Shown here: piece by piece, positions 1 through 23,650 of the stretch
How the letters are laid out: the number at the start of each line of letters is the position of its first letter
Position numbering within the stretch: position 1 is the stretch's first letter
NCBI GenBank assembly: GCA_048939245.1
Contig: JBHLPR010000033.1
Location: forward strand, 1 to 23,650
Source of the DNA: Promethearchaeota archaeon
GTDB taxonomy: Archaea > Asgardarchaeota > Hermodarchaeia > Hermodarchaeales > Hermodarchaeaceae
Direction: 5' to 3'
Length of the DNA stretch: 23,650 nucleotides
The notes under the pieces: generated by a model
What the model was told of the DNA's origin: nothing
The model's database searches: none
What the model saw: only the letters and a program-made list of their open reading frames with translations
Program-made: the position numbers and the translations under genes

Positions 1-2427
1 CCCAGTTCCGGTGGGTGGGTAATCAATATCGGTGCGAACGGCGTCTAGATTTGTCGCCCATGAGACGACGCTAATTATGATGGTGAAGTTTTGCGAACGA
101 TATTCCCAAGATGCACCTTCAATACGCAAGGTAACGTCATATTTGACCCTAAAAATTGCATCGCCATAGGAGATGTCGAATTTTTCAAAGAGCGTCGGAT
201 TAGAAGCGTTCGGTGTGAATGTACCTGGAGGATCTACCACTTCAACCCAAGGACCAGACCCAGTATAGTCTTCATATCTTGTATAAGTCACGATAGGCAT
301 TGGACTTTCAAAATCTGTTGTCCATGGTGTTGAGTTATAGGAGACGTAACTGGCTTGATAAGGATCATAGAATTTCACTTGACAGGTGTAGCCTAATGTT
401 TTCGAGGTTTCACCAAGGTATTCGTGGTCACCTACTTTTTGCGCAGGTTTAATCAATACTTCCTCGATAGGATTGACCAGGTTTATAGAGAAATTTAGAT
501 GTGAAGTGACATATCCGTCCTGTGTGAGTTCGACAGAAAACTTTGCAGTTAAACTAGGACGGAGTTGGCTGGTATCGAAATCCCATGAATAGGACCCATT
601 GTGGTGTGAAGTCATAGTCGTGTATTGAGATTGGAAATTACGATCCACGTATGTTAGTTGAGCAGTCCCAGTACCAATATAGGCCGAGGTATCATTATTC
701 TGCCATGATACTTTGACAAGAGTCTTATCACCCCAGATTATTTTTTGTCCATCGGATGGTGAGATTTTGGTGCCCTTTGTGTTGATAAAGACAGCAAAGT
801 TTTCTTCTCGCATTCCGCATTGATATGACGTGTTAAACGATACGGTCACTAACCAATCCGAACCTGCATCAATTTCATCGATGCTTGGAATTTGCCATGT
901 GGTGGTTTTTAATGAGTTATTCTGAGGAAAGAATTGGGGAGTTGTATCGCTTTGCCATAATGAACCGTCTGGGCGAAACAGAGATACATTTGCAGTATTA
1001 TCAGTGAGGTGTATTGTGCTGAATTTTGCTAGTATGCGGATGAAGTCGTCCTTGATGAAATAGTGCTCGTGGGTGAAATTGGTCCATGGTTCAGTGGGAC
1101 TTGTTTTTTGTTGGATGACAATTTGTAGGACCTGATTTGTGCTCGATACTATGATTGTGAAGGCTTCGTTAGCCGTGGGGACGCCATCCACTAATTTCAC
1201 GAAATGACTAGAGGTATTATATGAATAATGGGAAGGGAGTGACAATGTGTGTGAACTGTTTTTTACTATTGGGTTACTCCACCCTTCTTCAAGGTTTAAT
1301 CCGAAGCTGTATCCATCGTGATTAGGTGGGGGTAGTGGCGTAGGTGTGAGATAGCTGACTTGCCAAGTGGGTTGCCCATTAACAGGGGCAGAGAAGCTGG
1401 TAGTAGCAGCTCCATCCTTTTTGGTTTTTACATACATTGAATAATCGTAATGGAATGAAATTTCTTTGGAGGAATTGAATTGGAACAATTGATCAGAGTT
1501 CCAGCAGTTAGTGGGGGGTGCTTCGGTTCTATTCGCTGGATCAGCATAAACCTTGACTGTGCCTTTGTTACTCCCCGTATCTATGAATGTAGTATTATTA
1601 AGAGTGAGTCCAACTTCAGAGGGACTTCGCTGGGTAAGAATACGATAACGGAAGTTGTCAAAATAGATATAGCCCTGAAGAAGATTGTTTTTTCCACCAG
1701 AATATATAATGGAAATACTGAGTGTGACTGATCCATTGATGGGAGCTGAACTAAAACTTAGGTGGTCCCAAAATGCTGGAGAATAGACATCCGTGGTTTC
1801 TGACCAGCTCCCAATTTCAGTTCCATGATAGTTGAGGGCTACTCTGACTTGTAGCTCTTTTTTCTGGGTTATAAAAGGATGGTATTTGATGTCAAATTCG
1901 AGGGTTGAGTTGTAGGGCTGTTTATCTGAAGTGTAGGTAAAGGTATTTTCATAGCGGGCTTCGGCTGCATCATCTTCAAATCTATAATCAAGATGAATAT
2001 ATAAACAATCGGGGGGATTGCCTTCAAAACTAGTTGTGCCCCAGTCATGAACTATGGCACGCTCATTGCGCTCTTGTTCCCAGGCGGTTCCAGGTTCAGT
2101 TTGATTGAACTCCCCATTCGGAACTGGATCCCGGATTTCAAAGAGATTAGTTACCTCAGCTTGAAGTTGATAGCCCCGGTAGATGGTGGGGGTTTGGGGA
2201 AACCAGCTACCAAGATATGTAAACGTAGTATCTTCAACTCCATTCCTGTAGGTCATACTGCTGTCTTTGCGTGCGAATTCATAGACATCTAACAGGCCAC
2301 CAATGCCCTCGTAGGGAGAGTTAGGTGCTGCAGAAACACTTGGATTTGGTGTTAGGCCGGATGGCATGAAAATAATTACAGCAAATAGCGTAAAAACGGT
2401 AGCTAGTTCAATCTTACCTCTTCTCAA
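1..2427 (-). CDS. Gene A: large secreted Ig-like-repeat surface protein, collinear paralog of gene B; 3' end runs off the window (first 809 codons visible)
   Basis: Manual translation shows no stop from TTG at 2427 to position 1 (MRRGKIELATVFTLFAVIIFMPSGLTPNPSVSAAPNSPYEGIGGLLDVYEFARKD...WATNLDAVRTDIDYPPTGTG). It aligns throughout with gene B (WFPQTPTIYRGY, DPVPNG, IYFDNF, QCGMR, QVKFYD, FTPNAS). SD GGTG at 2434-2437. An in-frame GTG at 2436 is an alternative start. Confidence 0.93.
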   Translation of the reverse strand, partial: MRRGKIELATVFTLFAVIIFMPSGLTPNPSVSAAPNSPYEGIGGLLDVYEFARKDSSMTYRNGVEDTTFTYLGSWFPQTPTIYRGYQLQAEVTNLFEIRDPVPNGEFNQTEPGTAWEQERNERAIVHDWGTTSFEGNPPDCLYIHLDYRFEDDAAEARYENTFTYTSDKQPYNSTLEFDIKYHPFITQKKELQVRVALNYHGTEIGSWSETTDVYSPAFWDHLSFSSAPINGSVTLSISIIYSGGKNNLLQGYIYFDNFRYRILTQRSPSEVGLTLNNTTFIDTGSNKGTVKVYADPANRTEAPPTNCWNSDQLFQFNSSKEISFHYDYSMYVKTKKDGAATTSFSAPVNGQPTWQVSYLTPTPLPPPNHDGYSFGLNLEEGWSNPIVKNSSHTLSLPSHYSYNTSSHFVKLVDGVPTANEAFTIIVSSTNQVLQIVIQQKTSPTEPWTNFTHEHYFIKDDFIRILAKFSTIHLTDNTANVSLFRPDGSLWQSDTTPQFFPQNNSLKTTTWQIPSIDEIDAGSDWLVTVSFNTSYQCGMREENFAVFINTKGTKISPSDGQKIIWGDKTLVKVSWQNNDTSAYIGTGTAQLTYVDRNFQSQYTTMTSHHNGSYSWDFDTSQLRPSLTAKFSVELTQDGYVTSHLNFSINLVNPIEEVLIKPAQKVGDHEYLGETSKTLGYTCQVKFYDPYQASYVSYNSTPWTTDFESPMPIVTYTRYEDYTGSGPWVEVVDPPGTFTPNASNPTLFEKFDISYGDAIFRVKYDVTLRIEGASWEYRSQNFTIIISVVSWATNLDAVRTDIDYPPTGTG

Positions 2428-2505
2428 ATACCACACCTTACCGCACGAAGCCCTTTCAGTTAAATGGTATACCCACTTGCCGATAACATATACTCAGCGG
2501 AGAAC

Positions 2506-2525
2506 TTTATGAGCATTTTCTGAAT
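2506..2525 (-). promoter_or_regulatory. Promoter of gene A: degenerate dyad (TTTTCTGAAT) plus degenerate TATA (CATAAA)
   Basis: Minus strand ATTCAGAAAATGCTCATAAA, with the same dyad-to-TATA spacing as the other three. Centre 93 nt from TTG 2427. Confidence 0.58.
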
Positions 2526-2802: not shown

Positions 2803-5800
2803 TTATTCGTCTTTTGAGTCATCAACGCGAAAATCCTTTTTACTTTTCACGACTTTTCCTTCTGCGGTGTCCTTGGTTTTTTTCTCCCGGAAGGTCTGTA
2901 AAACCTTTTGGCGTTCTTCCTCGGTGAGCTCCTTCAATTCTTCGAGCAACTTTTGACGTTCTTCTTCAGTTATTGCCGGTAATTCATCTGGTCGGAGTGT
3001 CTCATCTTCTGAGATAACTTGGGGTTTTTCAGCAATAGCTAGAGTGCTAAAAATTTCTCCCCATTCTTCTTTAGGCAGGGCGCGTAGTTGTTGTGCGATG
3101 CGCTCTTTTTCAAACGTGCTCAATTGTGGAAATTGCTTCAATCGGTCTTGTATTTCCTGTTCTAGCTCTGGAGACAGTGTAGGTTCTTTGATTTTTCGGG
3201 CAAATCGGGTGCCGTCGGCCATTTGTTGTTTTAAGTCTTCGATGAACCACACGCGTTCTGTGGCTGGAATGCGTTTCATTTCTTCGAATAATTCGAGCTT
3301 CTGTTCGTGTTCGAGGTGTGGTAATTGCTTTAATTCTGCCCAGATGGCTTCATCCTCAGCAAATCGTTCTTCATAATCAATAACAGCTGGAAGGCCTGTA
3401 GTAGGAATTGGTATCTGAATGGTCTCATAGGCTGGTTGGACAATGTGACTCATTAGTTCAGGTCGAGAGCCAATACGGTCGATATCCCCTTTTGAGAGTT
3501 TAGGCGTTTTGCCTTTATCGATGGTTCGACCCATTTTCCGCATTTTCCGGACTAGCCAAGGAATGGCAAGGACTCGCGTATAAGCGAGCCACAGGAATAT
3601 CACGATAATTCCAATTACTGCGGCTATAAGCCCAATTTGGAGTGTTTGCTGAACAATTTGACTTAAGGTGACCGCGACTACGATGTCTTCAGTTGAAGAA
3701 CTATATTGTAAACCACCAAGGGCCGCAATTTCAATATGGAGTGTATGAGGTGACAAAAGTGCCGGAACCATAAACGAATAGGACCCATCTCCATGATCGA
3801 ACATATACTGTCTATCAATACCGAGTTCAGGAATGGTTACCGTGAGATTGCCACCAATAACTGGTAAATTGTGATAGGTATCATTGTAAAAGACTACTAA
3901 GGTCCAGGCAGTGCCTGTATCAACGGTGCGAACTTCGGTGATAACTTGAATTTCCGTTGGTACCCGAATGACAAACAAGTCATAGGCGGGGCTTTGTCCA
4001 TTTTCGTAGTTTTGTAAAGTCATTGTGACTTGAAGAGAGTAGGAGCCTGGAGCAGCCTGCGACAGGTCCAAAGTGGCCACATAGAGACCGTTCTCATATT
4101 CGAGGACGCCTATTCCATAATCCCAAGTGTATGAGCCTGATGCAGCCACTATTGTAGTGTTTGTTGCGTCGGTGAAGTTAAAGTATAATGTGAGAAGTTC
4201 ACCACGAGGAACAGTCCAAGTAATTCCTGTCAGATTTGACACAATATCTTCTGGGGCATAATAGGTTTGAATTAATACTAGGTCAAGGGTTGTTGGTTGC
4301 GGACGAATGAAAACTTCAACAGAGGCTATGGCAAAATCATATCCTTCGAAATCAACAGTGAGAGTGACTTGCCAGTTACCAGTGGGATAAATTGTGGAGG
4401 GTAATGATGTGGTGTACCATCCAGGTGTTCCCATTGGCTGCAATAACCCTGCTGAAGTGCCCCAGAAATATGTAACATTTGCACCATCAATGTGGAGATT
4501 ATGATGTGTATCATTGAAGTATACTTGTAGCGTGAAATTTGCTCCATAATATACTTCCTGGACAGTAGGAAAGGCTTGGAGTTCTGTGGGAATTAAAATT
4601 AGTGTAACGCTGATGGTCGTTATGCGTTCGATGACATTCTGCCCTCCCGCGGTGACATAGATGATATATTGCCCTTTTGTTAAGCCGGCGCTATTTAGCG
4701 TAGCATTATAGATGTTGCTGCCGACAAAGACGAGGTCCCCCGTCCTGCTAGTTGCCCAAAGATATGTGACATTGGCGTCTGCAATGCCTGTGCCATAGAT
4801 TGTTGTGAAGTTAACCGATATTTCAAAGTTTTCGCCCACAACGATTTGAATATTTGAGGTTATTGGACTAAGAATTGTATCAGTGGGCAGTATATTGAGC
4901 ATGATAAAGCCTGTGCCAATTTGGTAGCCAGTCTTGTTTGCTTGAATTGTTACCACATAGGCACCTGTGTCCGCAGCGGCCCCGAATGAGACGTTGTATA
5001 CTCCAGCTCCGATAAATGCCATAGTTCCATCTCCGCCTAGCCAGTGGTATGAAGTTGTTGAGTCGTTGATTAAACGTCCATAAAGATCCGTGACTCGCGC
5101 AGTGATTACTACTAATTCAGTCGAGTTATATTCCGTTGTAACTGGAGAAGAGGAAATGACTTCGACAAATAAAGGAATGGGAATCAACGTTAGAGAGACT
5201 ATTACCGTTCGTTGTGCAAAGTGGTCTCGCCAGATCGTAATGTTAATCGCGTGTGTTCCAACAGCTCGACAAGAGGTGTTAAGAATTAAAGCGTAGGTTC
5301 CATTTCCATAGTAGATAATAGTGTAATAGCTTACATTCCAATCGGTGGCAACATCTGCAAAGGGTACCTGCCCTCCATGATCCACATCATAGTAGTCGAG
5401 GCGAATTGTGATATTGAAGCTTAAGGGATGATTGGGAACATAATCTGGATCCGCTTCAAGCGTTGTCTGGATTTTTCGTATAACGAAGTTTTCAATTATC
5501 GTAAATTCCTGATAGTGACTCTTTTGGGCACTTATTGTGACTGTATAACTTCCTTCTGAGCGGCTTATTGTCTGGATTGTAAGTACGTAGGCTTGTAATG
5601 TAGAATTGTAGAAATAGCTCCAATAGAAGTCGTTCCAATCGCAGTCAATAACCGCTCCAGAAATTGGGGACCCACCATCATCGAGGTTAGAATAAGTGAA
5701 GACAATAATTAGGTTATCACCCCAGGGAACAGTCGTCCCCGGATCAAGCGATTGCCGCTGAAGCACAGTGAGATTATCTCGAACTTGGAAGGACACAAAC

Positions 5801-8800
5801 ACTTCCGAATCATCATAATGGGTTTTCGCTAATGTAACAATGAGCGTAAACGGTTGCATTCCCGTTCCTATTCGTGTGGTATTAAGAATCAGAGTATAGG
5901 ATCCATCGGGATTAAATACCAGCCAGTAATCGACACCCAAAATATCATTTGACGAGTTGAAGAAACCATTAGTTGAAACAAACGATAAGTCGGCACCATA
6001 AATCGGAATGGTACTGTGATCGGTGTCATTGTAGGATAAGGTGATGGTTACATTTTGGCCCCAAGGGATAGAGACTGTGTCAGCCAGACCAAATCCTGTA
6101 GTTTGTATTGGACGTAACGTGATTTCGAAATATTTGGATTGACTAGTGTAATTTGTGCGACTGAACAAGATTGTTACATAGTAGGTGGTTTCAGTAATAT
6201 TTCCCCAGAATGTAATGGTATATGTTCCATCTAAATTATTATAGATGGAATAGTTACCGTTAGGATAACCTCCAATAGATTGAGTCGCATCTGTTATGGG
6301 GATAGGGCTTCCTGAAACAATATCATTAAACGTAAGAGTTACTGTGAAATCATCATCATAAGGCAGATCAACTAGTGATCCCGGATAGTCCTTTGTGAGC
6401 TCTGTGTTTCGCGCTTCTACAATCAGTCGTATCTGGATTGATTGGGACGCGCAGTTGGGGGAGCTTGCATTCAATAACAGATCAGTGATTCCGAGTCCGA
6501 TATCAGTGGTATCCAGAGTATAGGTATAACATCCATTTGAGAGCTCATTTAAGGCGGTTTTCGATGTTCCGATGACGAGATGTGCTGTTGCGCCCGTAAT
6601 TCCTGTGTCGTTTTCTGCGAAGTGATAAAATACTGTGATATTGAAATCTTCGTTCCAATAAAGGCGTGCTTCGTAAGCATCGGTATTATTGTTATACTGG
6701 GTCCATCCATCACCTGCTGGTGGAGATGAAATTGCTGTTCGAACCGCATCCAAGTCTGTAGCGGTTTGAACAATCCGGATGATGATGGTGAAGTTTTGTT
6801 GCTGATAGTCCCAAGCGGCGTTCTCAATTCGCATGGTGACTTCATATTTTACCTGTGTTACCCCAGAATATTGAGAATCAACCTTTTCGAATATGATTGG
6901 GCTAGAAGCATTAGGAGTAAAACGCCCCTCAGTAATATAAGTCCAGTCGGATCCGGACCAATGATAGCGAGTAAAGTTTACTCGCACATTTTCATTCCAT
7001 ACGCCTGTATCATTACGAACATAGGCTTGTTCGTATAAATCGTAGAATTTGACTTGGCTGATATAGCCTTCATCACTGGTGGTTTCTGCCGTATATTCAT
7101 CGGGACCTGTTTGTTGGGAGGGGTGAATCATCGTGTAGCTTAGATCATTGACTAGATTGATGGTATAAGTGAGCTGCGTTCCCGTCACGTTTACATAGCC
7201 ATAGTAGAATAATTCGACATAGAATTCTGCAGCCCGATCAGGACTCATCAAATTTGTGCCAAAGTCTAACTCGTATGCCCCTTGTCCGTTTGCAGTCATA
7301 TTCACGTATCGGGTTTGCAGATTACGATCAATATATCGAATTCGAGCGGACGCGTCAGAAATGTAAGCTCCAGTATCATTATTTGCCCAGGTTACATTTA
7401 CAAAAACATTGTCCCCCCAGAGAACACGGGCACCTGGATCCGGATCGATTTTTTCGGTAGCCGTTTCAATGGCAATAGTGAAGTATTGGGCACGCATACC
7501 ACATTGTGTATCGTTATCAAAGGATACAGAAATTTGCCAATTGCTGCCCGCATTATCTGCATCAATTTGGTTGATTTGCCAAGCTGAGCTAACAATTGTA
7601 TTTTCAAGAGAATCAATAGTTGGTGAGGAATCACTATTCCAAAGCGTTCCGTTGGGATAAAATATCGATACATCCGCGGTATTATCTGAGGGACCAATGG
7701 GTCGTAATGTGGCAAGAACTCTGAGCCAGTCATCCTTTACATAATATTCACTTGAGGATACGTTAGTCCAAGGACCAGATCCGGTGCTGCTCTTTTGCGG
7801 ATATATTTCTAAGACGTAATTTAGACTAGAAGCAACAATACGGAATTTGTCACCTACAGAGGCTAGGTCTTCGTCTAACTTGAAGAAGTGGCTGGTTGCG
7901 TTATAGGAATATTGAGTTGTAGGAATAACATCATCAGTACTATTTCTAACTTCAACGAGATTCCATGTTGATCGTAAGTACAAGCCATAGCTATACCCGG
8001 CATATCCATCGGGAGGACGCCCGACAGGAATGGTGTAGTTTATATTCCAAGAAGGAGTTTCATCGGCAACCGTTGAGAAATCGGTTAAAGCGGCATTGGG
8101 ATTTTCACTTTTAATGTACATAGAGTATTCAAAGTCAAAACTAATATCCGCATAGGAAGAAGAAGTGAATTCAAACGATTCATCTGAATCCCAGCAAGTT
8201 GCTAATGAAGCTTGTTCCTTTAAGCTTGGGTCAGCATAAACATTGACTTCGCCTGCATTTCCAATAGTATCGGAGACAGCCGTTCCGTTGAGTGATAGCC
8301 CTACTTCACTGGGCTTACTATCAGTGCCAATGATGTATTGAAAATTATCAAAGTAAATATGTCCTTTCGTATTAGCATTGCCTCCCCCCTGTTTTTGGAT
8401 GGTGATGCGAATCATGACAGTTCCATTGACAGCTGCTGTTGGAAAACTGAGGGAATCCCATGATGTTGGACTATAAAGATCAGTAGTATTTGTCCAGCTT
8501 CCAACTTCTGATGCTTGATATCTGACCGAGACTTTGACATGGAGCCATCCCGCCTTGGAGATATCTTCTGAAAAACGAATATCAAAATATAATCTGAGAC
8601 TATCTGGGGTGATTGATGAAGTGTAAGAAAAGTCGTTATCTATCCACGCGTAGGCAGTGTTGGGAACAGTGCCATATTTGAGTTCGGCGTCAAGACAATA
8701 ACCAGGATTGCCACCGGTCATATTATCGATGGATTTGACTAATCCGCCTGTGGAGTCTGTTAAGGTCCAATTATTATCCGGTTCATCATATTGGTCAAAA

Positions 8801-9193: not shown

Positions 9194-9215
9194 TTTTATC
9201 AGTTTTTCCTGAAAT
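9194..9215 (-). promoter_or_regulatory. Promoter of gene B: TTTC-CT-GAAA dyad plus degenerate TATA (GATAAAA)
   Basis: Minus strand ATTTCAGGAAAAACTGATAAAA. Centre 89 nt from ATG 9120. Confidence 0.7.
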
Positions 9216-13927: not shown

Positions 13928-13951
13928 TTTAAATAGATTTCCTGAAATCTA
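13928..13951 (-). promoter_or_regulatory. Promoter of gene C: perfect dyad TAGATTTC-CT-GAAATCTA plus TATA box TTTAAA
   Basis: 8-bp inverted arms at 13934-13941 and 13944-13951; TTTAAA at 13928-13933. Centre 95 nt from ATG 13847. Confidence 0.78.
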
Positions 13952-14310: not shown

Positions 14311-17300
14311 TTATTCGGTTTGCCGCGTGGTCTCTTCAAGTGCTTTGATGACTTCCTCTTGTTCCTCCTTTGAGAGCCCGCGAAGTTGTTCCACAACCGC
14401 TTCTTTCTCTTCAGACCCTAAGGCCGCAAGTGATTGAAGTCGAGCATGGACTGTGGGATCGACACCTTCGGGGACCGGTGTAGGTTCAGCTGGAAGGCGC
14501 CCGAAGCGGGTGCCGTCGGCCATTTGGGATTTGAGATCTTCGAGGAACCAAATCCGGTCCTTGGCGGGGATCCGCTTCATCTCTTCGAAGAGTTCGAGTT
14601 TCTGGTCGTGGCCCAGACCTTCGAGTTTTTCGAGTTCGTTCCAGATGATTTCGTCTTCGGCTTCTCGTTCTTCGATGGTAATGGCGGCTGGTAGAACAGT
14701 GGCGCCAACAGCGATTCCGATGGCACTATAGGAAGGCTCGATAAGGGTTTCCATAGATTCGGGTCGAGTGGAGATGCGGTTTATATCTCGGTTGGAGAGG
14801 TGAGGGGTTTTTCCTTTACCGAGGGTGGTTGACATCTTGTGCATCTTCCGGACTAGCCAGGGTATAGCGAAGACCCGGGTATAAGCAAGCCAGGCGATGA
14901 GTATGATTATGCCGATTATCGCTGCTAGCAAACCGATTCGGAGTGCTTGTTGGACGATGGGATGCAAAGTGACTTGGATATTGATTTGGTGTGTGGCAAC
15001 TGAATATTTTATTCCCGTTTCAGCGGTGAATTGGGCGACCATAGTCGTTTCGCGTGGGAACGCAATTCCTGATAAGGCGTAGGTGCCATTTCCAAGATTG
15101 AGGAGCTCAATACCTGATTCTGATGTGATATCTGGGATGTAGGCGGTAATAACAGCATCAGAGATTGTGATGTTATGATCCAAGTCCCATAACGTACAAA
15201 CGAAGGAGTAGGCACTTCCCGTATTGACCTGAAGATTGGTTGGTAAACCCCGAAGTTCGGTGCGTACTAAGGTGACTGTAACGGGTAGTTGAGTAATTTG
15301 AGCGGTTTCGTAGTTTTGACGGGTAAGAGTGACGTCAATGAAGTATAGACCGGGTGATGTCTCGTTCATGTTAATCTGCGCGTAATACAAACCAGCATTG
15401 TATGTGAGGACTCCGCTTGCATAAAGCCAATTAAAGGAACCAGTGGCATCTGGGATTGGGTTTCCATTGCTATCAGTGAAATTGAAGTAAAGGAATAGTA
15501 TGTCACTGCGGGGAACGGTCCAGCCTGTGAGATTCAACGTGGTATACATGTTAAGGGGTTCATAATACATTCCAGCCGCACTTAATTCTAATGTTGTCGT
15601 CTGCGGAATTATATTCACTGTTATAACACAGATGGCAAATTCATATGTAGGTACATCAGATGCACAGGTTACCTCATATATGGCTCCCGCGGCGAAAATG
15701 GTAGTAGGAAGGGTGATAGTATACCAGCCAGGGGTACCAGTTTCTTGCATTGAACCGATCATGGTTCCCCAGAAGAAGGTAATATTAGCACCAGTGATAG
15801 GGCTGTTGTGGAAGGTATCGTTGAAGTAGACATCAATGGTGAAGTTTGTGCCCCAATACTCATTGATGAGTGAATCTGTGGGTGATAAGTCGGTAGGAAT
15901 GACCTCTAAGAATACATTCACTACATCGAATCGTTCAACGGCGTTAGGTGTACTGGCAGTAACATAAAGACTAAACTGACCTAATCCCAAGCCTAGACTG
16001 TCAATAGTCGCGTTGTAGATACCCTGTCCAATATGGATAAGTGAGCCATTGCCACCTGCCCAAGTATAGAGGAGGGTAGCGCTAATTATTGGGCTGCCAT
16101 CAACAGTGCTGAAATTCGCTGAAACTTCAAAACTTGAGCCTACAATTGTAACAATAGTAGGAGTGAGTAGGGTTAAAATTGTGTCAGTAGGAAGAATGTA
16201 TAGAGTAACCGAACCGATACCAGTCTGACAATTTGTTTTAACGGCTTCAATTGAAACTAACCATGTTCCTACGTCCTGATTCGCCGTAAATGAGGCATTA
16301 TAGATGCCGTTACCCAGGAAGGTCATTGGTGCATCAGGAAATCCTCCCCAATGATAGGTGACTGTTGAATCGTTGATACGTCGTCCATAGATATCGAGGA
16401 TTCGAACCGTGACAACGACATCTCCTGCAAACTCGGTTGTCCAAGGAGATGTGGAAAGTATGGAAACATAGAGTGGTAGTGGATTAATGGTAAATTGAAC
16501 TATCGTTGATCGCGTTTCATAGAAGTTACTAGCGAATTCGAGAGTGAAGTTGGCTAATCCAACAACTTCGTTTTCGGTTGGTACTTGAATTTGATAGGTG
16601 CCGTTTGGAAAGACTTGTAGAACTGACCAACCGGTCCAGCTAATCCAGGTGGTTACTGTTGTATTAGTGGGATCTGAGAGCACTAAACTGTGATCGACAT
16701 CCATGTAGGTGGCATAGAGGATGAGCGTGTCACCCCAATAGAGTTGCCCAAAGATCTCCCAAGTGAGGGTTGTGTGGATTGCACGTACATAACCACTCAT
16801 TAGAACTGAATGAGATTGATAGTAGGGAGCAATGTTGGATGGCCAGGTGACATTTACTAGAAAAGTGAACTGGCCCAATTCAGGAAAGTTGTTTGTATCG
16901 ATGAGTAACAAGTAGCCGTTAAAGCCATTGTTAATCATTTGCACATTATACACGAGGGTGATTGCGGGATGGCTTGTGCAGATGGCATTGATTTGAACGT
17001 AACCAGTGGTATTATCGATGGCAGTGTATGGGGCTTCGGTCATATTGTATTGAATAATAAAGATTAGGTCATCGCCAAAGGGTTGAGGTTCAGGGGGTGT
17101 ATAAAGTACCGTAGTTTTTGTACCAACGACATAGACACGGACATTTGCAGAGGCATTCCCATAGAATGGTATGAACCCAGCGTCCCACGTGGCATTAATC
17201 ACGAATTCGTGAAAGACGTTGACCGTTCCAAAAGCACTGGTATCAATCGAGACTCGGTAGGTATCATCAACTAAAGCTGTAACATAATAGAATATCGGAT

Positions 17301-20300
17301 TGAGTGGGGTTCCATCCGTGGCATTATATACTAAAATTCCGACATGGGCTCCAAAGGTATCGTTTGCGATATTTCCATGTCCGGATAAATCATAGTAGAC
17401 GAGGGTAACATTGAAAGTCGCACCATAATCAGTTGTGGGAATGTATGTAGGAGATAAACTAGACAGTCGTGAAGTTACAACCATATTTGCGATAAGGTAG
17501 CGCTCTTGATAGGTGGGGGGTGAAGTAGGCCAATCAACGGTAATGTTGAGTTGCCAAACGCCCAAGTCACTAACAGCTGATGTGTTGATGACTATCCAGT
17601 AGACTCCAGCAACCGGTTCTGAAATTGAGTAATGACTACTAGGAATGACCCACCCGACCCCGGAAACGTAGATGGGAGCTCCAGTGATAGGATTACCATC
17701 CTGTGAGCTGCTCGCATCTGACACAATGTAATGAACAACTATTGTGACATTGATACCCCATGGAGTAGGATCAAAAGCATCCGTTGATAGTGCGGTATAC
17801 ACTGTTCGTACGATAAAATTAACTGAGGAAAGGGTTGCAGGAGCGTAATGACCTGTGGTTACTTCTTCTAGTGCAATTGAAATTGTGTAGGTTTGGATTG
17901 ATGTGAGTGCAGATGCAAAGATAGTGATGCGATAGGAACCTCCACCGAGTGGAGTATAGGTGTAATCACTTGGGTTGAGGGGCCATGGTCCTATGGCTTG
18001 AACGACGATGTAAATACTGGGATCATTAATGCCTTCACTATTGTGTGAGCTTTCATCATCAAAGACAAGATAATCGACAATGATGATTACATTATCGCCA
18101 TAAGGCGTGGATTCGGGGGGTGTATAATCGAGACGGGTTCTAAGTTGTCGAACAGTGAAGGTTATGGAACGGAATGCACTCGCATATAGGTCATCTGCAG
18201 GATTGGGTTGTAGTGGATAGCTCGCGGCTATACCTAAGACATATTTTGCAATGGTCCCGAGTTCAGATTTGTAGATGGTTATGAGGTATTGACCAGCAAC
18301 GACTTCTGTGTAGGTGAAGTCGACCCCCAATACTAGAGGAGTACCGTTTAACGTGACGGTGAGTGAAGCACCACTTATTGGGTCACCATTATGTAATGTG
18401 CTTTGAGTGTCATCGATATGATAATAGATAGTGACGTTAGCATCTTCGTCCCAAGGAATAGGCTGAAGTGCATCATAATTAATTGAGCTTGAATATTGTC
18501 GAATGGACACAATTAGCGAAAGTGAACGGTTTGCATGGTACGGTTCACCAAACCAGCGTAGTCGAATTTCGAAATTATAGTTACCTACACCTGGAAGGTA
18601 AGCCGTGTTTACAAGGATGTTATAGGTTCCGCCTCCGAGGTCTTGAATCCAGAAGTAGTCCATTCCCGAAGGCCATTTGATGGTTCCATTCCATACTTCG
18701 AAGTGGAGTTGTCCCGTTATATTGAGAATGGGGGCACCTCCCGCGTCGAGGTCCAAACATAGAACTTCAATTGTCGAGTTTTCCTCGAATGGAACAGCAT
18801 TAGGTGGGGTATAAGTGAATTGGGTATTTCGTGCCTGGACGGTGACCATGAGATAGAATTGTTGGCGTTGGAACCGTTCTTTGCTGATTGTGATATTTAA
18901 TGCATAGGTTCCGAGAGGGAGTGCTGTACTATTGAGTTCAATAGAGTACCAGCCATTTCCGTCCTCCCAAATAGTGTAATAGCCGGCTGTCCAGTTGGCT
19001 AAGACATCGACATAGGGGATGCAGCCATTAATGCCAGCACCATCAGTTTTCCGCATGTAGTGAACTTGGATTGTTGCGTTTTCTAGCCAGGAAACGCTGA
19101 CTGAGGGAGATTGCGGACTGTATACAGTCGTTTCAGATGAGATATCGACGACAATATAGGTGAATGCAGCATCATAATAGGATTTACTTGCGTCAACCCG
19201 AATTGTGTAACGCCCAACGTCAGGTACATCCAAAGCGTTAATTTCAGCTTCGTAATATCCGGTGCCTGAAATCCAATTGAAGGTTATTGTGCCAGTCGTC
19301 CAATTCCCTTCAACAGTAGCAGGTGGAGATAACCAAACGTCTTTGTCCGTATCATTATATCGAACCTTAGGATACAAAGGTTGATCTTCAAAGAAAGCGT
19401 AAATGGTAGATTCTCGGGCTACTAGAGTTGTGGCATGGGTTACACTGTACGTGCTTTCGAGTTCTCCAGCTTCGGTTGAATTATCCCAGAAGACAACGAT
19501 TTTATAAAGCCCTCCAATTGTCGTTGCACCATCAATGGTGAACTGAGTGGAGGTAACCCAACCAGCCGCATCTGGAGCCACGAGTTCAGTGTACCAGATT
19601 GTTGATCCGTCAGGATTGTATATAGATACATTGGCTTGTGTGGTTGTAACACCACTTGGCGGATTATTCGAACCATCTAAAATTCTTGCTCGAACACGTG
19701 ACGTATTTCCTGACCGAACCGCAGCAATATTTTGCCACGTCCCATCAAGAATTTGGAGAACAACCGAGTCAACATAGTTATGCGATTCAGCTAGAATCGT
19801 CCAGTACCCATCAGGACTGTTCGTAATGGTTGTTGCAGGAATACTGAGATAACCATCACCTGGATCACCACCTTGACATTGAGCTACCTTATTTACAGTG
19901 GGTAGCTGGGGTTCTGAAACAAAAGTGATGTCCCAATCAGTAGGTATTGTGAAATTGTAGACATCATTCCAATATTGGGTTGGGAGTGCAAGCAGATGGT
20001 ACAAGGTCCATTCAGTGTTTGATCCACTTTCCGCATCAAATTGTATTCCTATTGCTGTCGGGCTCTGGGAATACAGAGTCTGAGCAGTTTTATTAGCATA
20101 CAAATTCACATCACAAAGGGCAGTAACCATAATTTCTAAGTCAGGGTTTGGAGGTGTTGGAGTGGGCGTCCAATTTAATTGGGCAATAACTGGTGAGGTT
20201 GTCCAGACAGCTGTAGGCACCTGAGTTATAGAACCACTACCGCGTGATGCATCATTTTGAACAACTAATCCATTCATTTCAAGATTTATCTCAGAAGGAT

Positions 20301-21201
20301 AAACGCGAGTATCAAGGTAAAGTTCGATGTTGTCAAAGTTCCCTTGCATCCAATTGTTTGAACTATACCCAACACTCATTGTTGAAATAATACCGACTTC
20401 AACTTCAATGGCATCCGATGGAATATTGAAAAGACCTGCATCAATTTCAATAAAGCCGGTATTATGCCAATTAGTATCACCAACTGCTTGAAAACCTGTG
20501 GCCCACACTTGCGTTCCATTAATGCGAATGTATACATTAAATAGCGCATTAGATCCCCAGGCACTGTTAACATAGTAATCCATCTTAATCGCAGCCCAGG
20601 CAATGTTGCTTCGGTTCACAGTGTAGGTTTGGGTCCACCAGGTTCGATCATTATTATCATAGCGATAGTAAGATCCGTCCCAGCGACCATCTTCTTGGAC
20701 GCGGACAAAGCCATTTCCATCAGTTCCACCAGACTGCCAAGATTGACTGAAGGTGTTGGATCCACCGAGGTCAACATAACCGCTAGTCCAGCTATTCGAA
20801 TTTCCATCGAAACTTGGGTTAATGACCCAGCAACGATTTTCATAAAGGTTGTAAATGGAATAATCAAGCTTGTAACCGGTCCAACCTGGAGGTAATACAA
20901 CGCTAGCAGAGTCATTATAGGGAGTTTGGGTGGAGCTGTTATAATACATGAAAATTGGCTGATTTCCATCTGTACGATTTGCAGTTTCATGAACCAGACG
21001 CGCTGCACCGACACCGGAATAATCTGGACTGGGAAGTGGAGGACTTGAGGGGTAAATAGGAGAGGGGGTCGAGTCAATCGAATTCGAGAAAGGGGTCGTA
21101 TCTTGGGAAAAAGCAGGCGTTGGTGTTCCCCAAATCGGATACATAACGAATGGGACGATTAATAAGAAAAATATCAAAAAATGAAAGGATAGTGACTTCA
21201 T
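14311..21201 (-). CDS. Gene D: ~2296-aa single-pass surface glycoprotein; same head type as C, ~14 Ig-like stalk repeats
   Basis: The ORF track starts at TTG 21246. ATG 21201 (MKSLSFHFLIFFLLIVPF) has GGAGG at 21209-21213, 7 nt upstream, and gives a normal signal peptide. TM IGLLAAIIGIIILIAWLAY ~14881-14937. Confidence 0.93.
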   Translation of the reverse strand: MKSLSFHFLIFFLLIVPFVMYPIWGTPTPAFSQDTTPFSNSIDSTPSPIYPSSPPLPSPDYSGVGAARLVHETANRTDGNQPIFMYYNSSTQTPYNDSASVVLPPGWTGYKLDYSIYNLYENRCWVINPSFDGNSNSWTSGYVDLGGSNTFSQSWQSGGTDGNGFVRVQEDGRWDGSYYRYDNNDRTWWTQTYTVNRSNIAWAAIKMDYYVNSAWGSNALFNVYIRINGTQVWATGFQAVGDTNWHNTGFIEIDAGLFNIPSDAIEVEVGIISTMSVGYSSNNWMQGNFDNIELYLDTRVYPSEINLEMNGLVVQNDASRGSGSITQVPTAVWTTSPVIAQLNWTPTPTPPNPDLEIMVTALCDVNLYANKTAQTLYSQSPTAIGIQFDAESGSNTEWTLYHLLALPTQYWNDVYNFTIPTDWDITFVSEPQLPTVNKVAQCQGGDPGDGYLSIPATTITNSPDGYWTILAESHNYVDSVVLQILDGTWQNIAAVRSGNTSRVRARILDGSNNPPSGVTTTQANVSIYNPDGSTIWYTELVAPDAAGWVTSTQFTIDGATTIGGLYKIVVFWDNSTEAGELESTYSVTHATTLVARESTIYAFFEDQPLYPKVRYNDTDKDVWLSPPATVEGNWTTGTITFNWISGTGYYEAEINALDVPDVGRYTIRVDASKSYYDAAFTYIVVDISSETTVYSPQSPSVSVSWLENATIQVHYMRKTDGAGINGCIPYVDVLANWTAGYYTIWEDGNGWYSIELNSTALPLGTYALNITISKERFQRQQFYLMVTVQARNTQFTYTPPNAVPFEENSTIEVLCLDLDAGGAPILNITGQLHFEVWNGTIKWPSGMDYFWIQDLGGGTYNILVNTAYLPGVGNYNFEIRLRWFGEPYHANRSLSLIVSIRQYSSSINYDALQPIPWDEDANVTIYYHIDDTQSTLHNGDPISGASLTVTLNGTPLVLGVDFTYTEVVAGQYLITIYKSELGTIAKYVLGIAASYPLQPNPADDLYASAFRSITFTVRQLRTRLDYTPPESTPYGDNVIIIVDYLVFDDESSHNSEGINDPSIYIVVQAIGPWPLNPSDYTYTPLGGGSYRITIFASALTSIQTYTISIALEEVTTGHYAPATLSSVNFIVRTVYTALSTDAFDPTPWGINVTIVVHYIVSDASSSQDGNPITGAPIYVSGVGWVIPSSHYSISEPVAGVYWIVINTSAVSDLGVWQLNITVDWPTSPPTYQERYLIANMVVTSRLSSLSPTYIPTTDYGATFNVTLVYYDLSGHGNIANDTFGAHVGILVYNATDGTPLNPIFYYVTALVDDTYRVSIDTSAFGTVNVFHEFVINATWDAGFIPFYGNASANVRVYVVGTKTTVLYTPPEPQPFGDDLIFIIQYNMTEAPYTAIDNTTGYVQINAICTSHPAITLVYNVQMINNGFNGYLLLIDTNNFPELGQFTFLVNVTWPSNIAPYYQSHSVLMSGYVRAIHTTLTWEIFGQLYWGDTLILYATYMDVDHSLVLSDPTNTTVTTWISWTGWSVLQVFPNGTYQIQVPTENEVVGLANFTLEFASNFYETRSTIVQFTINPLPLYVSILSTSPWTTEFAGDVVVTVRILDIYGRRINDSTVTYHWGGFPDAPMTFLGNGIYNASFTANQDVGTWLVSIEAVKTNCQTGIGSVTLYILPTDTILTLLTPTIVTIVGSSFEVSANFSTVDGSPIISATLLYTWAGGNGSLIHIGQGIYNATIDSLGLGLGQFSLYVTASTPNAVERFDVVNVFLEVIPTDLSPTDSLINEYWGTNFTIDVYFNDTFHNSPITGANITFFWGTMIGSMQETGTPGWYTITLPTTIFAAGAIYEVTCASDVPTYEFAICVITVNIIPQTTTLELSAAGMYYEPLNMYTTLNLTGWTVPRSDILFLYFNFTDSNGNPIPDATGSFNWLYASGVLTYNAGLYYAQINMNETSPGLYFIDVTLTRQNYETAQITQLPVTVTLVRTELRGLPTNLQVNTGSAYSFVCTLWDLDHNITISDAVITAYIPDITSESGIELLNLGNGTYALSGIAFPRETTMVAQFTAETGIKYSVATHQINIQVTLHPIVQQALRIGLLAAIIGIIILIAWLAYTRVFAIPWLVRKMHKMSTTLGKGKTPHLSNRDINRISTRPESMETLIEPSYSAIGIAVGATVLPAAITIEEREAEDEIIWNELEKLEGLGHDQKLELFEEMKRIPAKDRIWFLEDLKSQMADGTRFGRLPAEPTPVPEGVDPTVHARLQSLAALGSEEKEAVVEQLRGLSKEEQEEVIKALEETTRQTE
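14501..14670. repeat. Near-identical direct repeat, copy 2 (cytoplasmic-domain core of gene D)
   Basis: Offset 5020 nt from copy 1; all differences are synonymous. Confidence 0.9.
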
Positions 21202-21284
21202 AGTGATGCCTCCACTATTTTGATGGTTTATGCTAGCGATATCCAAAGCTGGAGTAGCACTATATCTAGCTCACAGGGCGGGGA

Positions 21285-21306
21285 TTTAAATGCATTTCCT
21301 GAAATG
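21285..21306 (-). promoter_or_regulatory. Promoter of gene D: dyad CATTTC-CT-GAAATG overlapping a BRE-like element, plus TATA box TTTAAA
   Basis: Minus strand CATTTCAGGAAATGCATTTAAA. Dyad centre 98 nt from ATG 21201. The motif recurs upstream of all four visible gene starts. Confidence 0.78.
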
Positions 21307-21412: not shown

Positions 21413-23650
21413 TTATGATGTGTCCTCCTCATTTTCGATGTCGTATTGTTCCTTGAGGGTTTTGAAGACTTCTTCGCGTTCTTTCGGTGGAAGACTTGTA
21501 ATTTGTTTAAAGAGGGTTTTCTTCTCCCGTTCGCTGAGGGCGGGAAGTTCATCAAGACGGGCTTGGATTATCTGTTCTTCAGCGGTCTTGTCTAAGAGTC
21601 CTTCCGGTGGGGTGATTTGCGCGCGTTGGAAGCGAGTGCCATCTGCCATCTGGTGTTTCAAGTCTTCGAGGAACCAAATCCGGTCCTTGGCTGGGATGCG
21701 CTTCATCTCTTCGAAGAGTTCGAGTTTTTGATCACGTCCTAGACCTTCGAGTTGGTCGAGTTCGTGCCAGATGTCGACTTCTTCGGCTTCTCGTTCATCC
21801 ACTGACAGGGGTATGGGTACGGCGCTAGTGGCAAAGGAGATTTTTGCTCCATCATAGGCGTCCTCCATCATGTCCGTCATTTGATCAGGGCGCGTGGCGA
21901 TGCGGCGTTGGTCTCGACCAGAAAGCCTAGGCATTTTGCCCCTACCTAAGGTTGTGGACATCTTACGCATCTTCCGGACTAGCCAAGGTATAGCAAAGAC
22001 CCGAGTATAGGCTAGCCAAGCAATGAGGAGGAGGATGCCAATTACGGCTGCGATTAGTCCGTATGTGAGGATTTGTCGAGTAAAGGGATGGGTCTGTACG
22101 CGCAGCTGGAGAGTGAATTCACCTGTTTCACAATTATCCGCTAGGGCAGTGATTGTGAGGTCAAAAATGCCTTCAAAGGTGGCGGGTACTCCGATTATTT
22201 CATATTCGCCGTTACCCAAATGAATCATCTGAGTAGGTGCTAGACCGAAAGTGGGGCCTTCTATGATGATAGTAGCGTCTGTAATGGCGAGATTATGCCA
22301 GGAATCAGTGAAGTTGACTCGAATACGGAGTATGTCCCCTACATAGACCTCATGGTAACTTGTATTGAGGACTGGATAGAGAAGATGGATTTCTGTGGGG
22401 ATATTCCGAATTTCAATGGTGAAGGAGATAATCGCTACATCAAAGTTTTGTTTTGAAAAGCCCACGGCGGCAGAGTAAGATCCAATTACGAGGGTGTTCG
22501 TATCAATGGTGACTTGGTATAGTCCATTGCCAATGTATTCAATATCTTGGAAGCCGATTTGGTAACTGATTATTCCTGTTGCATTGGAAATGGTTTGGTT
22601 CCAAAATCCTGTATAGTTGAAGGTGAATATGAGGAAATCGCCTCTGGGAGCCCAAATTTCATCAGGGTCAAGTTCATGGATTACGGTTCCGAGTTGGTCG
22701 CTGGTTTGGGCAGTAATAAGCGTGGCAGTGGTTGGTTGTTCGGCTACAAGGAGGAGTATTTGGGAGGTAGCGTCTTCATAGGCGGCGATTTGCGCGCGAA
22801 TTGTTATTGTGTACGTTCCCACAGATTGATTTACGACATGGATTGTGGCGGAATACCAGCCATCCGTACCGTTAGGAAGCATATCACCGGAGAACCCAAT
22901 GCCAAAGTAGCGTGGAATTGCACCTGTAATAGGTTTGTTCTCCGCAGTGTCGTTCAAATAAACTGAGAAGGTGAAGGTATCATTCCAAAATACGCTATAT
23001 GATCTGGACAAGGGCACAATGTCCACTTCTCGTCCACGGATGACGATGCTTACTGAGAGGAAGGCTTGCCAATAATCAACGGGAGCATTTGCGTCGAGGA
23101 AAAATCGAAGTTGATATGTTTCATTAACAAGGTAAAGTGATGCATCAAATGACATCGAAAAGTTGCCAACTTCACCAGATACTGGTGTAAGTGTTCCTGC
23201 ATCCACGATATCGGCTGTCGAATTATACAAGGTCCAGTTGGCGATATATGGAACCGATGTGGCACCAACGTCGATACCTCCACCGGATGGCGTAGAATCT
23301 AAGTCCTTGTAAAATACAATGAAGGTTCGACTTACGTTGTAAGGCACTTCAACAAAGGGAACAGTGGTTGGTGCTTTTAGCTCTAATTCGGTTCGATGTT
23401 CACGTGCAACAATTCCAATCGCCACGTCTGTATCGCTACTACCACTTACGGATATAGGCGCGGTTTGGTTATGGATACGAAATCGATCAATATAACGAAC
23501 ACTCACGTCATATTGATCAGGGAAAATATAAGTCGAAGCTGTAGGAGTAGCATTAAGGGCAAATATCGGAGCTCCTGAGGAGGCATTATCTAAAAAGACC
23601 TCTGCAAATGTTGGAAGCTGACTATTATCATACCAATCTCTAACTTCGAT
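21413..23650 (-). CDS. Gene E: C-terminal 745 aa of another paralog (Ig-like repeats, TM, conserved cytoplasmic domain); 5' end outside the window
   Basis: The frame stays open from the track's GTG at 23506 to the window edge (IEVRDWYDNSQLPTFAEVFLDNASSGAPIFALNATPTASTYIFPDQYDVSVRY...). No signal peptide at 23506. TM YGLIAAVIGILLLIAWLAY ~22007-22063. Confidence 0.93.
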   Translation of the reverse strand: MEVRDWYDNSQLPTFAEVFLDNASSGAPIFALNATPTASTYIFPDQYDVSVRYIDRFRIHNQTAPISVSGSSDTDVAIGIVAREHRTELELKAPTTVPFVEVPYNVSRTFIVFYKDLDSTPSGGGIDVGATSVPYIANWTLYNSTADIVDAGTLTPVSGEVGNFSMSFDASLYLVNETYQLRFFLDANAPVDYWQAFLSVSIVIRGREVDIVPLSRSYSVFWNDTFTFSVYLNDTAENKPITGAIPRYFGIGFSGDMLPNGTDGWYSATIHVVNQSVGTYTITIRAQIAAYEDATSQILLLVAEQPTTATLITAQTSDQLGTVIHELDPDEIWAPRGDFLIFTFNYTGFWNQTISNATGIISYQIGFQDIEYIGNGLYQVTIDTNTLVIGSYSAAVGFSKQNFDVAIISFTIEIRNIPTEIHLLYPVLNTSYHEVYVGDILRIRVNFTDSWHNLAITDATIIIEGPTFGLAPTQMIHLGNGEYEIIGVPATFEGIFDLTITALADNCETGEFTLQLRVQTHPFTRQILTYGLIAAVIGILLLIAWLAYTRVFAIPWLVRKMRKMSTTLGRGKMPRLSGRDQRRIATRPDQMTDMMEDAYDGAKISFATSAVPIPLSVDEREAEEVDIWHELDQLEGLGRDQKLELFEEMKRIPAKDRIWFLEDLKHQMADGTRFQRAQITPPEGLLDKTAEEQIIQARLDELPALSEREKKTLFKQITSLPPKEREEVFKTLKEQYDIENEEDTS
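21663..21730. repeat. Near-identical direct repeat, partial copy 3 (gene E)
   Basis: 68 nt with 3 mismatches to the gene D copy and 4 to the gene C copy. Confidence 0.85.

Follow-up and report, generated by a model that had tools for sequence, protein, structure and literature searches.

A tandem array of Asgard type-I surface glycoproteins with exchangeable CBM-like tips and a predicted intracellular dock

The window, i.e. the whole 23,650-nt stretch of DNA analysed here, is filled by five co-oriented giant open reading frames on the minus strand, whose products are paralogs of one another (Table 1), so that the tandem array of at least five members in the original prediction is real. The host, judged beforehand to look archaeal and Asgard-like, is an Asgard archaeon of the Hermodarchaeum genus, as borne out by a taxonomy check in which genomes of the same genus bear the names Hermodarchaeota or Ca. 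Hermodarchaeum yapensis. The array had also been thought to run on beyond both edges of the window. The left gene (member 5) is completed on contig C71 (77-nt overlap), with unrelated genes beyond, while the right gene (member 1) begins at the end of contig C11, behind an enoyl-CoA hydratase-like gene, with ~158 codons unassembled. Since both outer genes finish on these neighbouring contigs next to unrelated genes, the array has exactly five members, compared with 1-4 copies at the locus in relatives; the whole genome holds eight family members. The array slots are conserved orthologs across species, with the order A-B-C kept across the genus; in slots A and C, the heads of orthologs share 72-75% identity. 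Genes flanking the locus look metabolic. Thorarchaeota-type genomes carry a coupled pair of ~2590 aa each with stop-to-start overlap, which looks co-transcribed and operon-like, and the proteins of the family range from 1450 to 4500 aa.

Table 1. Positions of the array genes and their features in the window, unless a contig is named
Feature	Position	Strand	Remarks
Member 5 (slot D, ~1909 aa overall), 5' part	1..2436	-	remainder with TM and tail at C71:41786-45151
Member 5 CBM-like jelly-roll tip (res 101-269)	1630..2136	-	mapped via alignment A4
Member 5 upstream BRE-TATA-like element	2505..2525	-	degenerate copy
Member 4 (slot C, 2105 aa)	2803..9120	-	signal, head, 11 stalk repeats, TM, 257-aa tail with three helical repeats
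Member 4 TM and tail	2806..3648	-	TM (3577-3648), juxtamembrane motif (3385-3561), helix bundle 1 (3214-3375), rest of tail
Member 4 CBM-like jelly-roll tip (res 99-267)	8320..8826	-	
Member 4 upstream element	9194..9214	-	
Member 3 (slot B, short body, 1523 aa)	9291..13862	-	tip allele J2, 7 stalk repeats, TM, 188-aa tail
Member 3 two cytoplasmic three-helix bundles	9294..9656	-	mutually homologous; bundle 1 at 9495-9656
Member 3 juxtamembrane segment (res 1341-1399)	9666..9842	-	predicted adaptor-binding surface
Member 3 transmembrane helix	9858..9929	-	
Member 3 macroglobulin MG2-type domain (res 486-600)	12063..12407	-	
Member 3 CBM-like jelly-roll tip (res 125-311)	12930..13490	-	exchanged module, inserted in beta scaffold
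Member 3 upstream element	13927..13947	-	near-palindromic TTTC-NN-GAAA into BRE, then TATA box
Member 2 (slot B, long body, ~2296 aa from ATG 21201)	14311..21201	-	open reading frame 14311-21246; tip allele J1, 14 stalk repeats, TM 14878-14949, 188-aa tail
Member 2 CBM-like jelly-roll tip	20305..20838	-	
Member 2 upstream element	21284..21304	-	
Member 1 (slot A, ~1420 aa in relatives), 3' half	21413..23650	-	stalk, TM 22004-22075, 196-aa tail
Member 1 5' part, with different head	C11:80414-81894		on neighbouring contig

The four CBM-tipped genes each code for a signal peptide followed by a jelly-roll tip, a stalk of 7-14 Ig-like repeats, a single membrane helix and a tail of 188-257 aa. In the complete members, an N-terminal hydrophobic signal segment and a single C-terminal TM helix enclose an outer part with 36-54 N-glycosylation sequons, none being found in the tail, and 6-8 K/R per 25 residues follow the TM, as opposed to 0-4 preceding it. 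Both the sequon split and the K/R excess support the intracellular tail of the original prediction, and sequence features indicate that the array proteins are exported, N-glycosylated and anchored by one TM helix. The stalks differ in length, as had been noticed, with 7, 14, 11 and 9 Ig-like repeats in the four CBM-tipped genes. Archaeal S-layer glycoproteins likewise combine a signal peptide, dense N-glycosylation sites, Ig-like domains and a C-terminal TM, but end in a short anchor with hardly any cytoplasmic sequence instead of a 188-257-aa tail with folded helix bundles, and fold comparison with S-layer proteins gave partial domain-level matches only (TM ~0.13-0.14). Searches of Pfam and NCBIfam with the five array proteins returned nothing above cut-off.

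The head was modelled with a pLDDT of 93. Its tip jelly roll resembles the alginate-binding CBM 8zqf (Z 12.8, rmsd 4.1, 170 aligned), many CBMs being tied at Z 10-12, and its MG2 domain is matched at Z 12.3 (rmsd 1.9, 101 aligned), a repeat from a large adhesion protein (6xi3, Z 10.7) aligning with it as well. Since MAM and cleaved-adhesin domains come within ~2 Z units of the CBM matches, the jelly-roll fold by itself is no proof of sugar binding; the modelled fold suggests that the tips may bind glycans. Among 53 heads no match to Pfam CBM families was found, a PDB sequence search with the head profile gave nothing significant, and the ESM Atlas returned only leads below 0.9. The lectin-like fold that had been predicted for the divergent tips is thus supported, but only four of the five heads are CBM-like, the head of member 1 being different and unmatched by the head profile; an assignment of this slot-A head to DUF2341 was dropped, as Pfam gives no support. 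Giant stalked adhesins with lectin tips are known among bacterial RTX/Ig-repeat adhesins and archaeal adhesin-like proteins, and share with the array a CBM-like tip, tandem Ig-like repeats in variable number and exchangeable tips. The array proteins differ from them in their type-I topology, a folded cytoplasmic tail of 190-260 aa, a predicted cytoplasmic adaptor (see below) and the lack of a Pfam/NCBIfam match.

Tips move between gene bodies. Four relatives carry a tip whose identity to member 2 peaks at 78-88%, as against 24-48% to member 3, on a body mostly nearer member 3; the tip and body trees are incongruent in both directions (AU p 8e-11 and 1.6e-8), and every one of the four tip-body combinations is observed. 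Assembly chimeras are an unlikely source of these mosaics, since the identical mosaic occurs in several independent genomes. In Thermococcales, VARTIG is a hypervariable Ig module of a large archaeal surface protein that is varied by recombination between genomes, in a paper in which Asgard archaea are unmentioned (PMC8416519); there the variable domain is a C-terminal Ig, whereas the array proteins vary in an N-terminal jelly roll and have a conserved cytoplasmic tail behind the TM.

Tip exchange might also serve to evade viruses or predators instead of selecting ligands, if the members were fixed subunits of a hetero-oligomeric glycoprotein coat that takes the place of an S-layer, with the tails and the adaptor as inner scaffold. 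The conserved slot order and slot A and C heads would fit such a coat, as would the coupled pair retained in Thorarchaeota-type genomes and an S-layer-like density of ~1 sequon per 35-42 residues (PMC11284389). Cultured Asgard archaea have complex surface proteins on a membrane without S-layer, those of Ca. Lokiarchaeum ossiferum being unordered (PMC9834061). However, the range of protein lengths and the 1-5 copies per locus suit a fixed lattice poorly, and a single head type is found combined with three different tail types, so that a structural coat is considered unlikely.

The TM and cytoplasmic domain, originally described as near-invariant, are 45-89% identical among the array members, with only the recent pair P0003/P0004 at 86-89%. 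The tails cluster by slot and not by genome, and the closest tail pair differs at 37 of 71 four-fold sites (52%) in spite of 89% protein identity, which argues for purifying selection on the tails. Gene conversion as the main cause of tail likeness is rejected on the same two grounds; occasional conversion is possible, since the four-fold difference of this pair is lower in the tail than in the head (66%) and the stalk (74%). The tail is most conserved in bundle 1 and has a strongly basic juxtamembrane helix. Fold searches with the tail gave generic three-helix bundles and long helices only, the best match to protein A/GA-type three-helix modules (Z 6.7, rmsd 2.8, 55 aligned; Foldseek E >1) falling under the level meaningful for helical bundles. 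The ESM Atlas yielded no usable match, and a MgtE/FliG-like repeat found no support in the fold searches. That the tail is not a characterised anchoring family therefore holds in Pfam, NCBIfam, and PDB sequence and fold searches. The original prediction had called for a profile tally of the tail. Among the Asgard genomes searched, all Hermodarchaeia (13/13) and all Thorarchaeota-type genomes (49/49) have the full tail; every Odinarchaeia-like genome (4/4) gives a tail match, and 42 of 45 Lokiarchaeia-like genomes match in the juxtamembrane part alone.

A candidate partner of the tail is a longin-like/winged-helix protein that is single-copy in this genome (G000 C86:1946-3490) and 92-95% identical across the genus. 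In other Asgard lineages, genes with the TM and juxtamembrane motif are followed by the adaptor gene at 4-46 nt (once 167 nt), namely in 3/3 evaluable Odinarchaeia-like loci, 1/1 in f20 and 7/7 Lokiarchaeia-like loci; the homolog in cultured Lokiarchaeia, of ~1240 aa, has the adaptor next to it. Adaptor homologs are also present in the families f18 and f12, where tail matches are few or absent, and there stand behind other genes. Here some 117 kb of the contig chain C86-C11-gap-C15 separate the adaptor gene from the array. A complex model of the adaptor with the membrane-proximal tail of member 3 scored 0.80, against 0.01 for the best control; in the benchmark, 58 of 80 solved complexes but only 2 of 110 mismatched pairs come up to the score mark, counts that are only a rough guide for the alignments used here. 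The runs share at least 87% of contacts, with a partner pLDDT of at least 72. PDB sequence searches with tail and adaptor profiles gave no significant match to either chain, which makes a pass owed to memorised structures less likely. The basic juxtamembrane segment is predicted to dock onto the C-terminal region of the adaptor, including the invariant F332, P334, E335, L359 and L362, leaving the adaptor N-terminal domain free. On the tail, the predicted interface is the very segment that alone is matched in Lokiarchaeia-like genomes; its residues are no more conserved than the remaining tail (0.44 vs 0.47), and the member 3 helix bundles lie outside it, so that it gives no explanation for the conservation of bundle 1. 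A C57 protein whose tail was tried as a fused adaptor copy shows no similarity.

It is improbable that the tail is merely a membrane anchor on acidic lipids and the adaptor prediction spurious in this lineage. The basic juxtamembrane helix and the unlinked tail and adaptor genes of this genome would agree with such an anchor, but the complex model passes with clean controls and the gene adjacency is conserved in other lineages. One common intracellular partner behind different outer modules, as originally proposed, thus gains a candidate with a passing structure model, while the repertoire is small and each tail is its own and diverged. All eight family members could share one adaptor dock, as modelled for member 3 and suggested by motif conservation for the others. 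In Clostridium thermocellum, the RsgI anti-sigma factors form a set of paralogs whose extracellular carbohydrate-binding modules vary; each has one TM, a conserved partner-binding domain in the cytoplasm and its own cognate sigma factor. Compared with these, the array proteins have the opposite topology, no Pfam match and one adaptor predicted for all.

The winged-helix domains of the adaptor family match HTH_5, TrmB and MarR (best E 3.5e-8), and the adaptor N-terminus has a motif pattern like longin/uDENN starts, its profile matching other longin-like ORFs; Pfam gave winged helix only and no NPR2 match for the adaptor. Of six same-genus relatives, five have the adaptor gene directly behind a small-GTPase gene, with Arf/Roc Pfam matches (E 1e-19) and an N-terminally fused adaptin-sigma/longin-like domain (weak, E 0.013). 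The longin-like pattern, the winged-helix domains and the small-GTPase neighbour recall the Asgard NPRL2/NPRL3-like longins, which have been tied to nutrient signalling and two-component fusions in the passages available (bioRxiv 10.1101/2020.10.19.343400; PMC12290439). These passages give no link to surface-protein tails, and the adaptor is likened to such longins by pattern. The tails might be clustered by a ligand of the tip, and the adaptor, as a GAP/GEF-like factor, might switch the small GTPase. The conserved gene order, the free N-terminal domain and the GAP activity of eukaryotic longin proteins toward small GTPases (PMC12290439) would favour transmembrane signalling. On the other hand, the catalytic motif and the adaptor-GTPase contact are putative, a long flexible stalk would transmit conformational change poorly, and an unrelated gene separates the GTPase and adaptor genes in this genome, which leaves such signalling doubtful. 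Only tentatively, an ancient Asgard chain may be drawn from exchangeable lectin-tipped receptors to one NPRL2-like adaptor and a small GTPase, which by its organisation would be a prokaryotic forerunner of eukaryotic adhesion-receptor/adaptor/GTPase signalling.

Upstream of four visible starts lies the BRE-TATA-like element TTCA(G/C)(G/A)AAA-N5-WTAAA. Under a stricter pattern, 4 of the genome's 1685 upstream regions match, each of them that of a family gene, and a matrix built from relatives alone places family genes 1st-3rd genome-wide, so that the element is beyond chance. A generic promoter is rejected, as tRNA upstream regions have BRE-TATA-like sites without the TTTC half. Member 1, whose start lies outside the window, is preceded by a different, conserved BRE-TATA-like element; the element that had been noticed before every visible start is thus not common to all five members. 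Sequence evidence thus supports a promoter-like element for each member.

Vertebrate clustered protocadherins are tandem genes (~50-60 members) with variable ectodomains, a conserved element per promoter and related cytoplasmic ends. The array resembles them in its promoter-like element per member (four shared, that of member 1 distinct), but has no shared constant exon, each gene encoding its own tail; the five members have no Pfam cadherin match, and the head folds as a jelly roll with an MG2-type domain. The protocadherin-like organisation that had been suggested is therefore a loose analogy, given the few members and the operon-like Thorarchaeota-type pairs. The variation seen is tip exchange between genomes, not protocadherin-like choice inside one cell. 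An identity code, in which each cell would express one or few members at random and recognise itself tip to tip, could draw on the individual promoter-like elements with their shared conserved site and on the exchangeable tips. Such a code is very improbable, however, with 1-5 genes per locus, a separate tail for each, no invertible segment found in the sequence and metabolic-looking neighbours.

The array is probably best explained as tandem-duplicated Asgard type-I surface glycoproteins that form a small repertoire of receptors or adhesins docking on a common intracellular partner. By its sequence, each protein is exported, N-glycosylated and spans the membrane once, with its tail inside; a stalk of 7-14 Ig-like repeats would hold out a head with a modelled CBM-like jelly-roll tip. 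Recombination among paralogs and lineages swaps the tip and alters stalk length, presumably to vary recognition, while purifying selection keeps the tails. The basic juxtamembrane segment would bind the C-terminal region of the single-copy adaptor, a dock that motif conservation extends from member 3 to the others, and the three-helix bundles would be free for a second partner or self-association. With a putative promoter for each gene, four of them with a family-specific site, expression may be co-regulated yet separately tunable. The adaptor most probably serves to anchor and position the fibres, and may also pass on signals.

In the literature searched, whose coverage left out most subscription papers, no description of the receptor family or of a tail-adaptor link was found; the present array adds a tested tip exchange and a proposed model of the array. 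The papers found do not establish what the surface proteins of cultured Asgard archaea are or how they connect to the cytoplasm, and the array family is a concrete candidate. Tip exchange marks the tip as the domain most likely to set partner or virus specificity. For the Asgard archaea, as relatives of eukaryotes, the array gives a testable model of how the cell surface may be linked to the cytoplasm. The question at stake is whether a eukaryote-signature longin-like protein anchors surface receptors, which would bear on how cell-contact machinery was wired before eukaryotes.

The window, which is the complete contig C15 of a 2.5-Mb genome, is filled by five ORFs, all on the minus strand, and since genomes of the same genus carry Hermodarchaeota names, including Ca. 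Hermodarchaeum yapensis, the host is an Asgard archaeon, in agreement with the original prediction. The latter had also proposed at least five paralogs running past both edges; the five tandem genes are real (members 1 to 5, right to left), but no further members lie on the adjoining contigs. Member 5 at the left runs on into contig C71 via a 77-nt overlap, with unrelated genes beyond, and the 5' half of member 1 at the right forms the end of contig C11, where an enoyl-CoA hydratase-like gene precedes it; ~158 codons are unassembled. Because both edge genes end at unrelated neighbours, the array comprises five members. In relatives the locus is bounded by hydratase-like and nitroreductase-like genes and holds one gene in the sister genus, three each in G008, G012 and G014, and at least four in G003 and G004. 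Three further tail-bearing paralogs are found elsewhere in the host genome, one standing alone and two forming a pair on C28 (Table); the tails of the pair are 68% identical, and proline-rich linkers and variant upstream elements are present.

Table. Coordinates of features in the window, in the host genome (G000) and in relatives
Feature	Location	Remarks
GC-rich hairpin, then T-rich run; terminator-like	window 9245-9280	just past member 3 stop
Modelled tail interface, member 3	window 9666-9842	alignment residues 37-95
Stand-alone member, ~2690 aa	G000 C24:1-6582 + C7:2-1552	two-contig gene joined through a 46-nt overlap; upstream element present as a strong copy
Second tandem pair, 2923 + 4511 aa	G000 C28:21811-44324 (L004, L005)	17 + 33 repeats
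946-aa protein	G000 C57:6681-9518 (L006:2682-5519)
Full-length adaptor gene	G000 C86:1946-3490
Adaptor C-terminal extension	G000 C86:3043-3490	~150 aa, Lys/Glu-repeat-rich
552-aa membrane-anchored protein gene	G000 C86:112-1767	between longin-GTPase gene (C39 end) and adaptor gene
TnpB-like gene, IS200/IS605-type (by eye)	L035:9760-11007 (G001:C14)	inserted just upstream of the pre-array hydratase gene
1143-aa ORF	L089:11969-15397 (G103:C84)	TM+juxtamembrane motif present twice; apparently an in-frame fusion of two short surface proteins
Slot-A ortholog, Odinarchaeia-like	L087:1397-4150 (G019:C1, about 206400-209150)	one in-frame TGA where Hermodarchaeia have Cys

Every complete member consists of a signal segment, an ectodomain bearing 36-54 sequons, a single TM helix with basic residues after it, and a tail with 0 sequons; the anatomy is modular and the tail lies inside the cell. 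In the head model of member 3 (pLDDT 93) a jelly roll (residues 125-311) is predicted as an insert within a beta scaffold, and structure alignment of the model relates it to numerous carbohydrate-binding modules, with a best Z of 12.8 (rmsd 4.1, 170 residues); this tip may bind glycans. An MG2-type domain (residues 486-600) matches complement/alpha-2-macroglobulin domains (Z 12.3, rmsd 1.9, 101 residues). Stalk repeats of ~95-110 aa number 7, 14, 11 and 9, and the outer architecture, a lectin-tipped Ig stalk, is of a known kind. The head of the first gene (slot A, member 1) is unrelated to the others. For the tail, the model predicts that the TM helix continues as a basic juxtamembrane helix, followed by a pair of short helices and then by two bundles of three helices each, the bundles being homologous to one another (hhalign probability 96), with a third, partial copy in slots C and D (members 4 and 5). 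The in-frame TGA of the Odinarchaeia-like slot-A ortholog may reflect a sequencing error, pseudogenisation or recoding; the f20 ortholog is an open reading frame without this interruption.

Among the array members, identity is 18-49% for heads, 23-52% for membrane-proximal stalks and 45-89% for TM and tail core, such that the predicted contrast between divergent tips and a conserved interior is real, but the interior is not near-invariant. Across genomes the tails group by array slot. The tails of members 2 and 3 (slot B) share 89% of residues, yet 37 of their 71 four-fold sites are different, indicating that tails are kept by selection. Between species, conservation extends along the full length in slots A and C (heads 72-75%, tails 78%), and slots B and D are more variable (heads 54% and 47%, respectively). 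That the array forms a structural coat is doubtful, and it falls outside the short-anchored S-layer proteins. It likewise lies outside the clustered protocadherins, to which its organisation had been likened, and a protocadherin-like code is very improbable.

In four relatives the slot-B jelly roll reaches peaks of 78-88% identity with member 2, against 24-48% with member 3, while the bodies are mostly nearer member 3, and this switch maps to the modelled insert. In a jelly-roll tree of 19 homologs two alleles stand apart at 100% support, and the body tree divides otherwise; tips and bodies are found in all four pairings, and neither alignment accepts the tree of the other (AU p 8e-11 and 1.6e-8). 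At the sequence level this demonstrates exchange of tips between gene bodies. G004 joins a foreign head (25-36% over 900 residues) to a member-2 body (82-91% in the majority of windows, starting at residue 1501), and the same head family occurs on longin-like tails (C57 of the host; Helarchaeota) and on short tails, so that heads, stalks and tails behave as shuffled modules. In the 946-aa C57 protein, a head of slot-C type (45% to member 4) is joined to a tail of another, longin-like kind, and its gene shares the upstream element of the array; ~5.7 kb away on that contig is a gene for a Rab-like GTPase. Recombination also varies one domain in the Thermococcales VARTIG proteins (PMC8416519), as it does the tip here.

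The upstream element consists of TTTCAGGAAA, two bases and a TATA box, ~70-105 nt ahead of the starts. Archaeal promoters carry a BRE at a characteristic position, which the purine run matches; the TTTC half, absent from tRNA upstream regions, makes the element a near-palindrome. Of 1685 upstream regions in the host, 4 contain its pattern, and all of these belong to family genes. The element, which the original prediction placed before every visible start, is common to slots B-D, but slot A is preceded by a conserved BRE-TATA-like site of its own, together with a distinct upstream motif (nine genomes). Because the elements are family-specific, intergenic gaps measure 170-448 nt and one gap holds a clear GC hairpin and T run, separate transcription with a common regulator for slots B-D is favoured, and members may be expressed separately. 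Separate promoters are not general in the family, since Thorarchaeota-type pairs overlap from stop to start and no internal promoter was seen within them. Thorarchaeota-type first genes (L077, L080, L082-L086) have another upstream motif, TTCGAAAAA and/or TTCGATTTTT, and a similar site precedes the C24 member of the host.

A broad tail profile matched 13/13 genomes of the host family, 49/49 of f6 (Thorarchaeota, from names of the matching proteins), 4/4 of f2 (probably Odinarchaeia-like) and 42/45 of f9 (probably Lokiarchaeia-like), in the last limited to TM and juxtamembrane segment; the searched genomes of f4, f13, f18 and f21 gave no match. Thorarchaeota-type genomes have 1-15 matches each, often tandem pairs of ~2590 aa. 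In Odinarchaeia-like and Lokiarchaeia-like loci the gene for an orthologous 365-aa cytoplasmic protein, the candidate adaptor, begins a few bases behind a head-plus-TM gene, and the two adjoin in 3/3, 1/1 and 7/7 evaluable loci from three families. Adaptor paralogs of Odinarchaeia-like and f20 genomes (L129:1-3307, L130) also adjoin surface proteins with a slot-A-like N-terminal domain, and in several Thorarchaeota-type genomes (G045:C20, G073:C7, G082:C1, G099:C1) the coordinates place a divergent paralog at a distance of some 9-15 kb from a family member of 4000-5000 aa. The host has one full-length ortholog, 92-95% identical across the genus, with a Hermodarchaeia-specific extension that 360-375-aa homologs lack.

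The complex model of this adaptor with the tail of member 3, the one member covered, scored 0.80 (best control 0.01), above a pass mark reached by 58/80 solved complexes vs 2/110 mismatched pairs, counts that are only rough for the alignments used here; runs agreed in at least 87% of contacts, with partner pLDDT of at least 72. The predicted interface joins the tail segment common to Lokiarchaeia-like proteins to the adaptor C-terminal region, including invariant F332, P334, E335, L359 and L362; the tail helix bundles are not named in it. That the tail is a lipid anchor only appears unlikely beside this model. The core pattern is recognisable in 8/8 host paralogs, and one dock may be common to all members. 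The one common intracellular partner of the original prediction thus gains a candidate, for member 3, but the tail interface does not exceed bundle 1 in conservation and the adaptor gene is unlinked to the array. In 5/6 relatives a small GTPase carrying a longin-like domain at its N-terminus is encoded directly ahead of the adaptor; most relatives keep this gene pair side by side, and in the host the 552-aa protein gene is inserted between them. A link to the small GTPase may exist, and true GTPase signalling is a less probable reading.

The alternatives of a structural coat, true GTPase signalling, a lipid anchor only and a protocadherin-like code overlap in part with the reading that we consider somewhat probable, an adhesin/receptor repertoire anchored on one adaptor. 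NPRL2-like longins have been catalogued in Asgard archaea, the parts of these sources consulted giving no link to surface proteins (10.1101/2020.10.19.343400; PMC12290439). The array is real, and the family is apparently undescribed in the literature searched; new are the bounded extent and slots of the array, a formal test for exchanged tips, the test of the promoter element and a model, scoring above the pass mark, that would join an array tail to an unlinked, single-copy adaptor.
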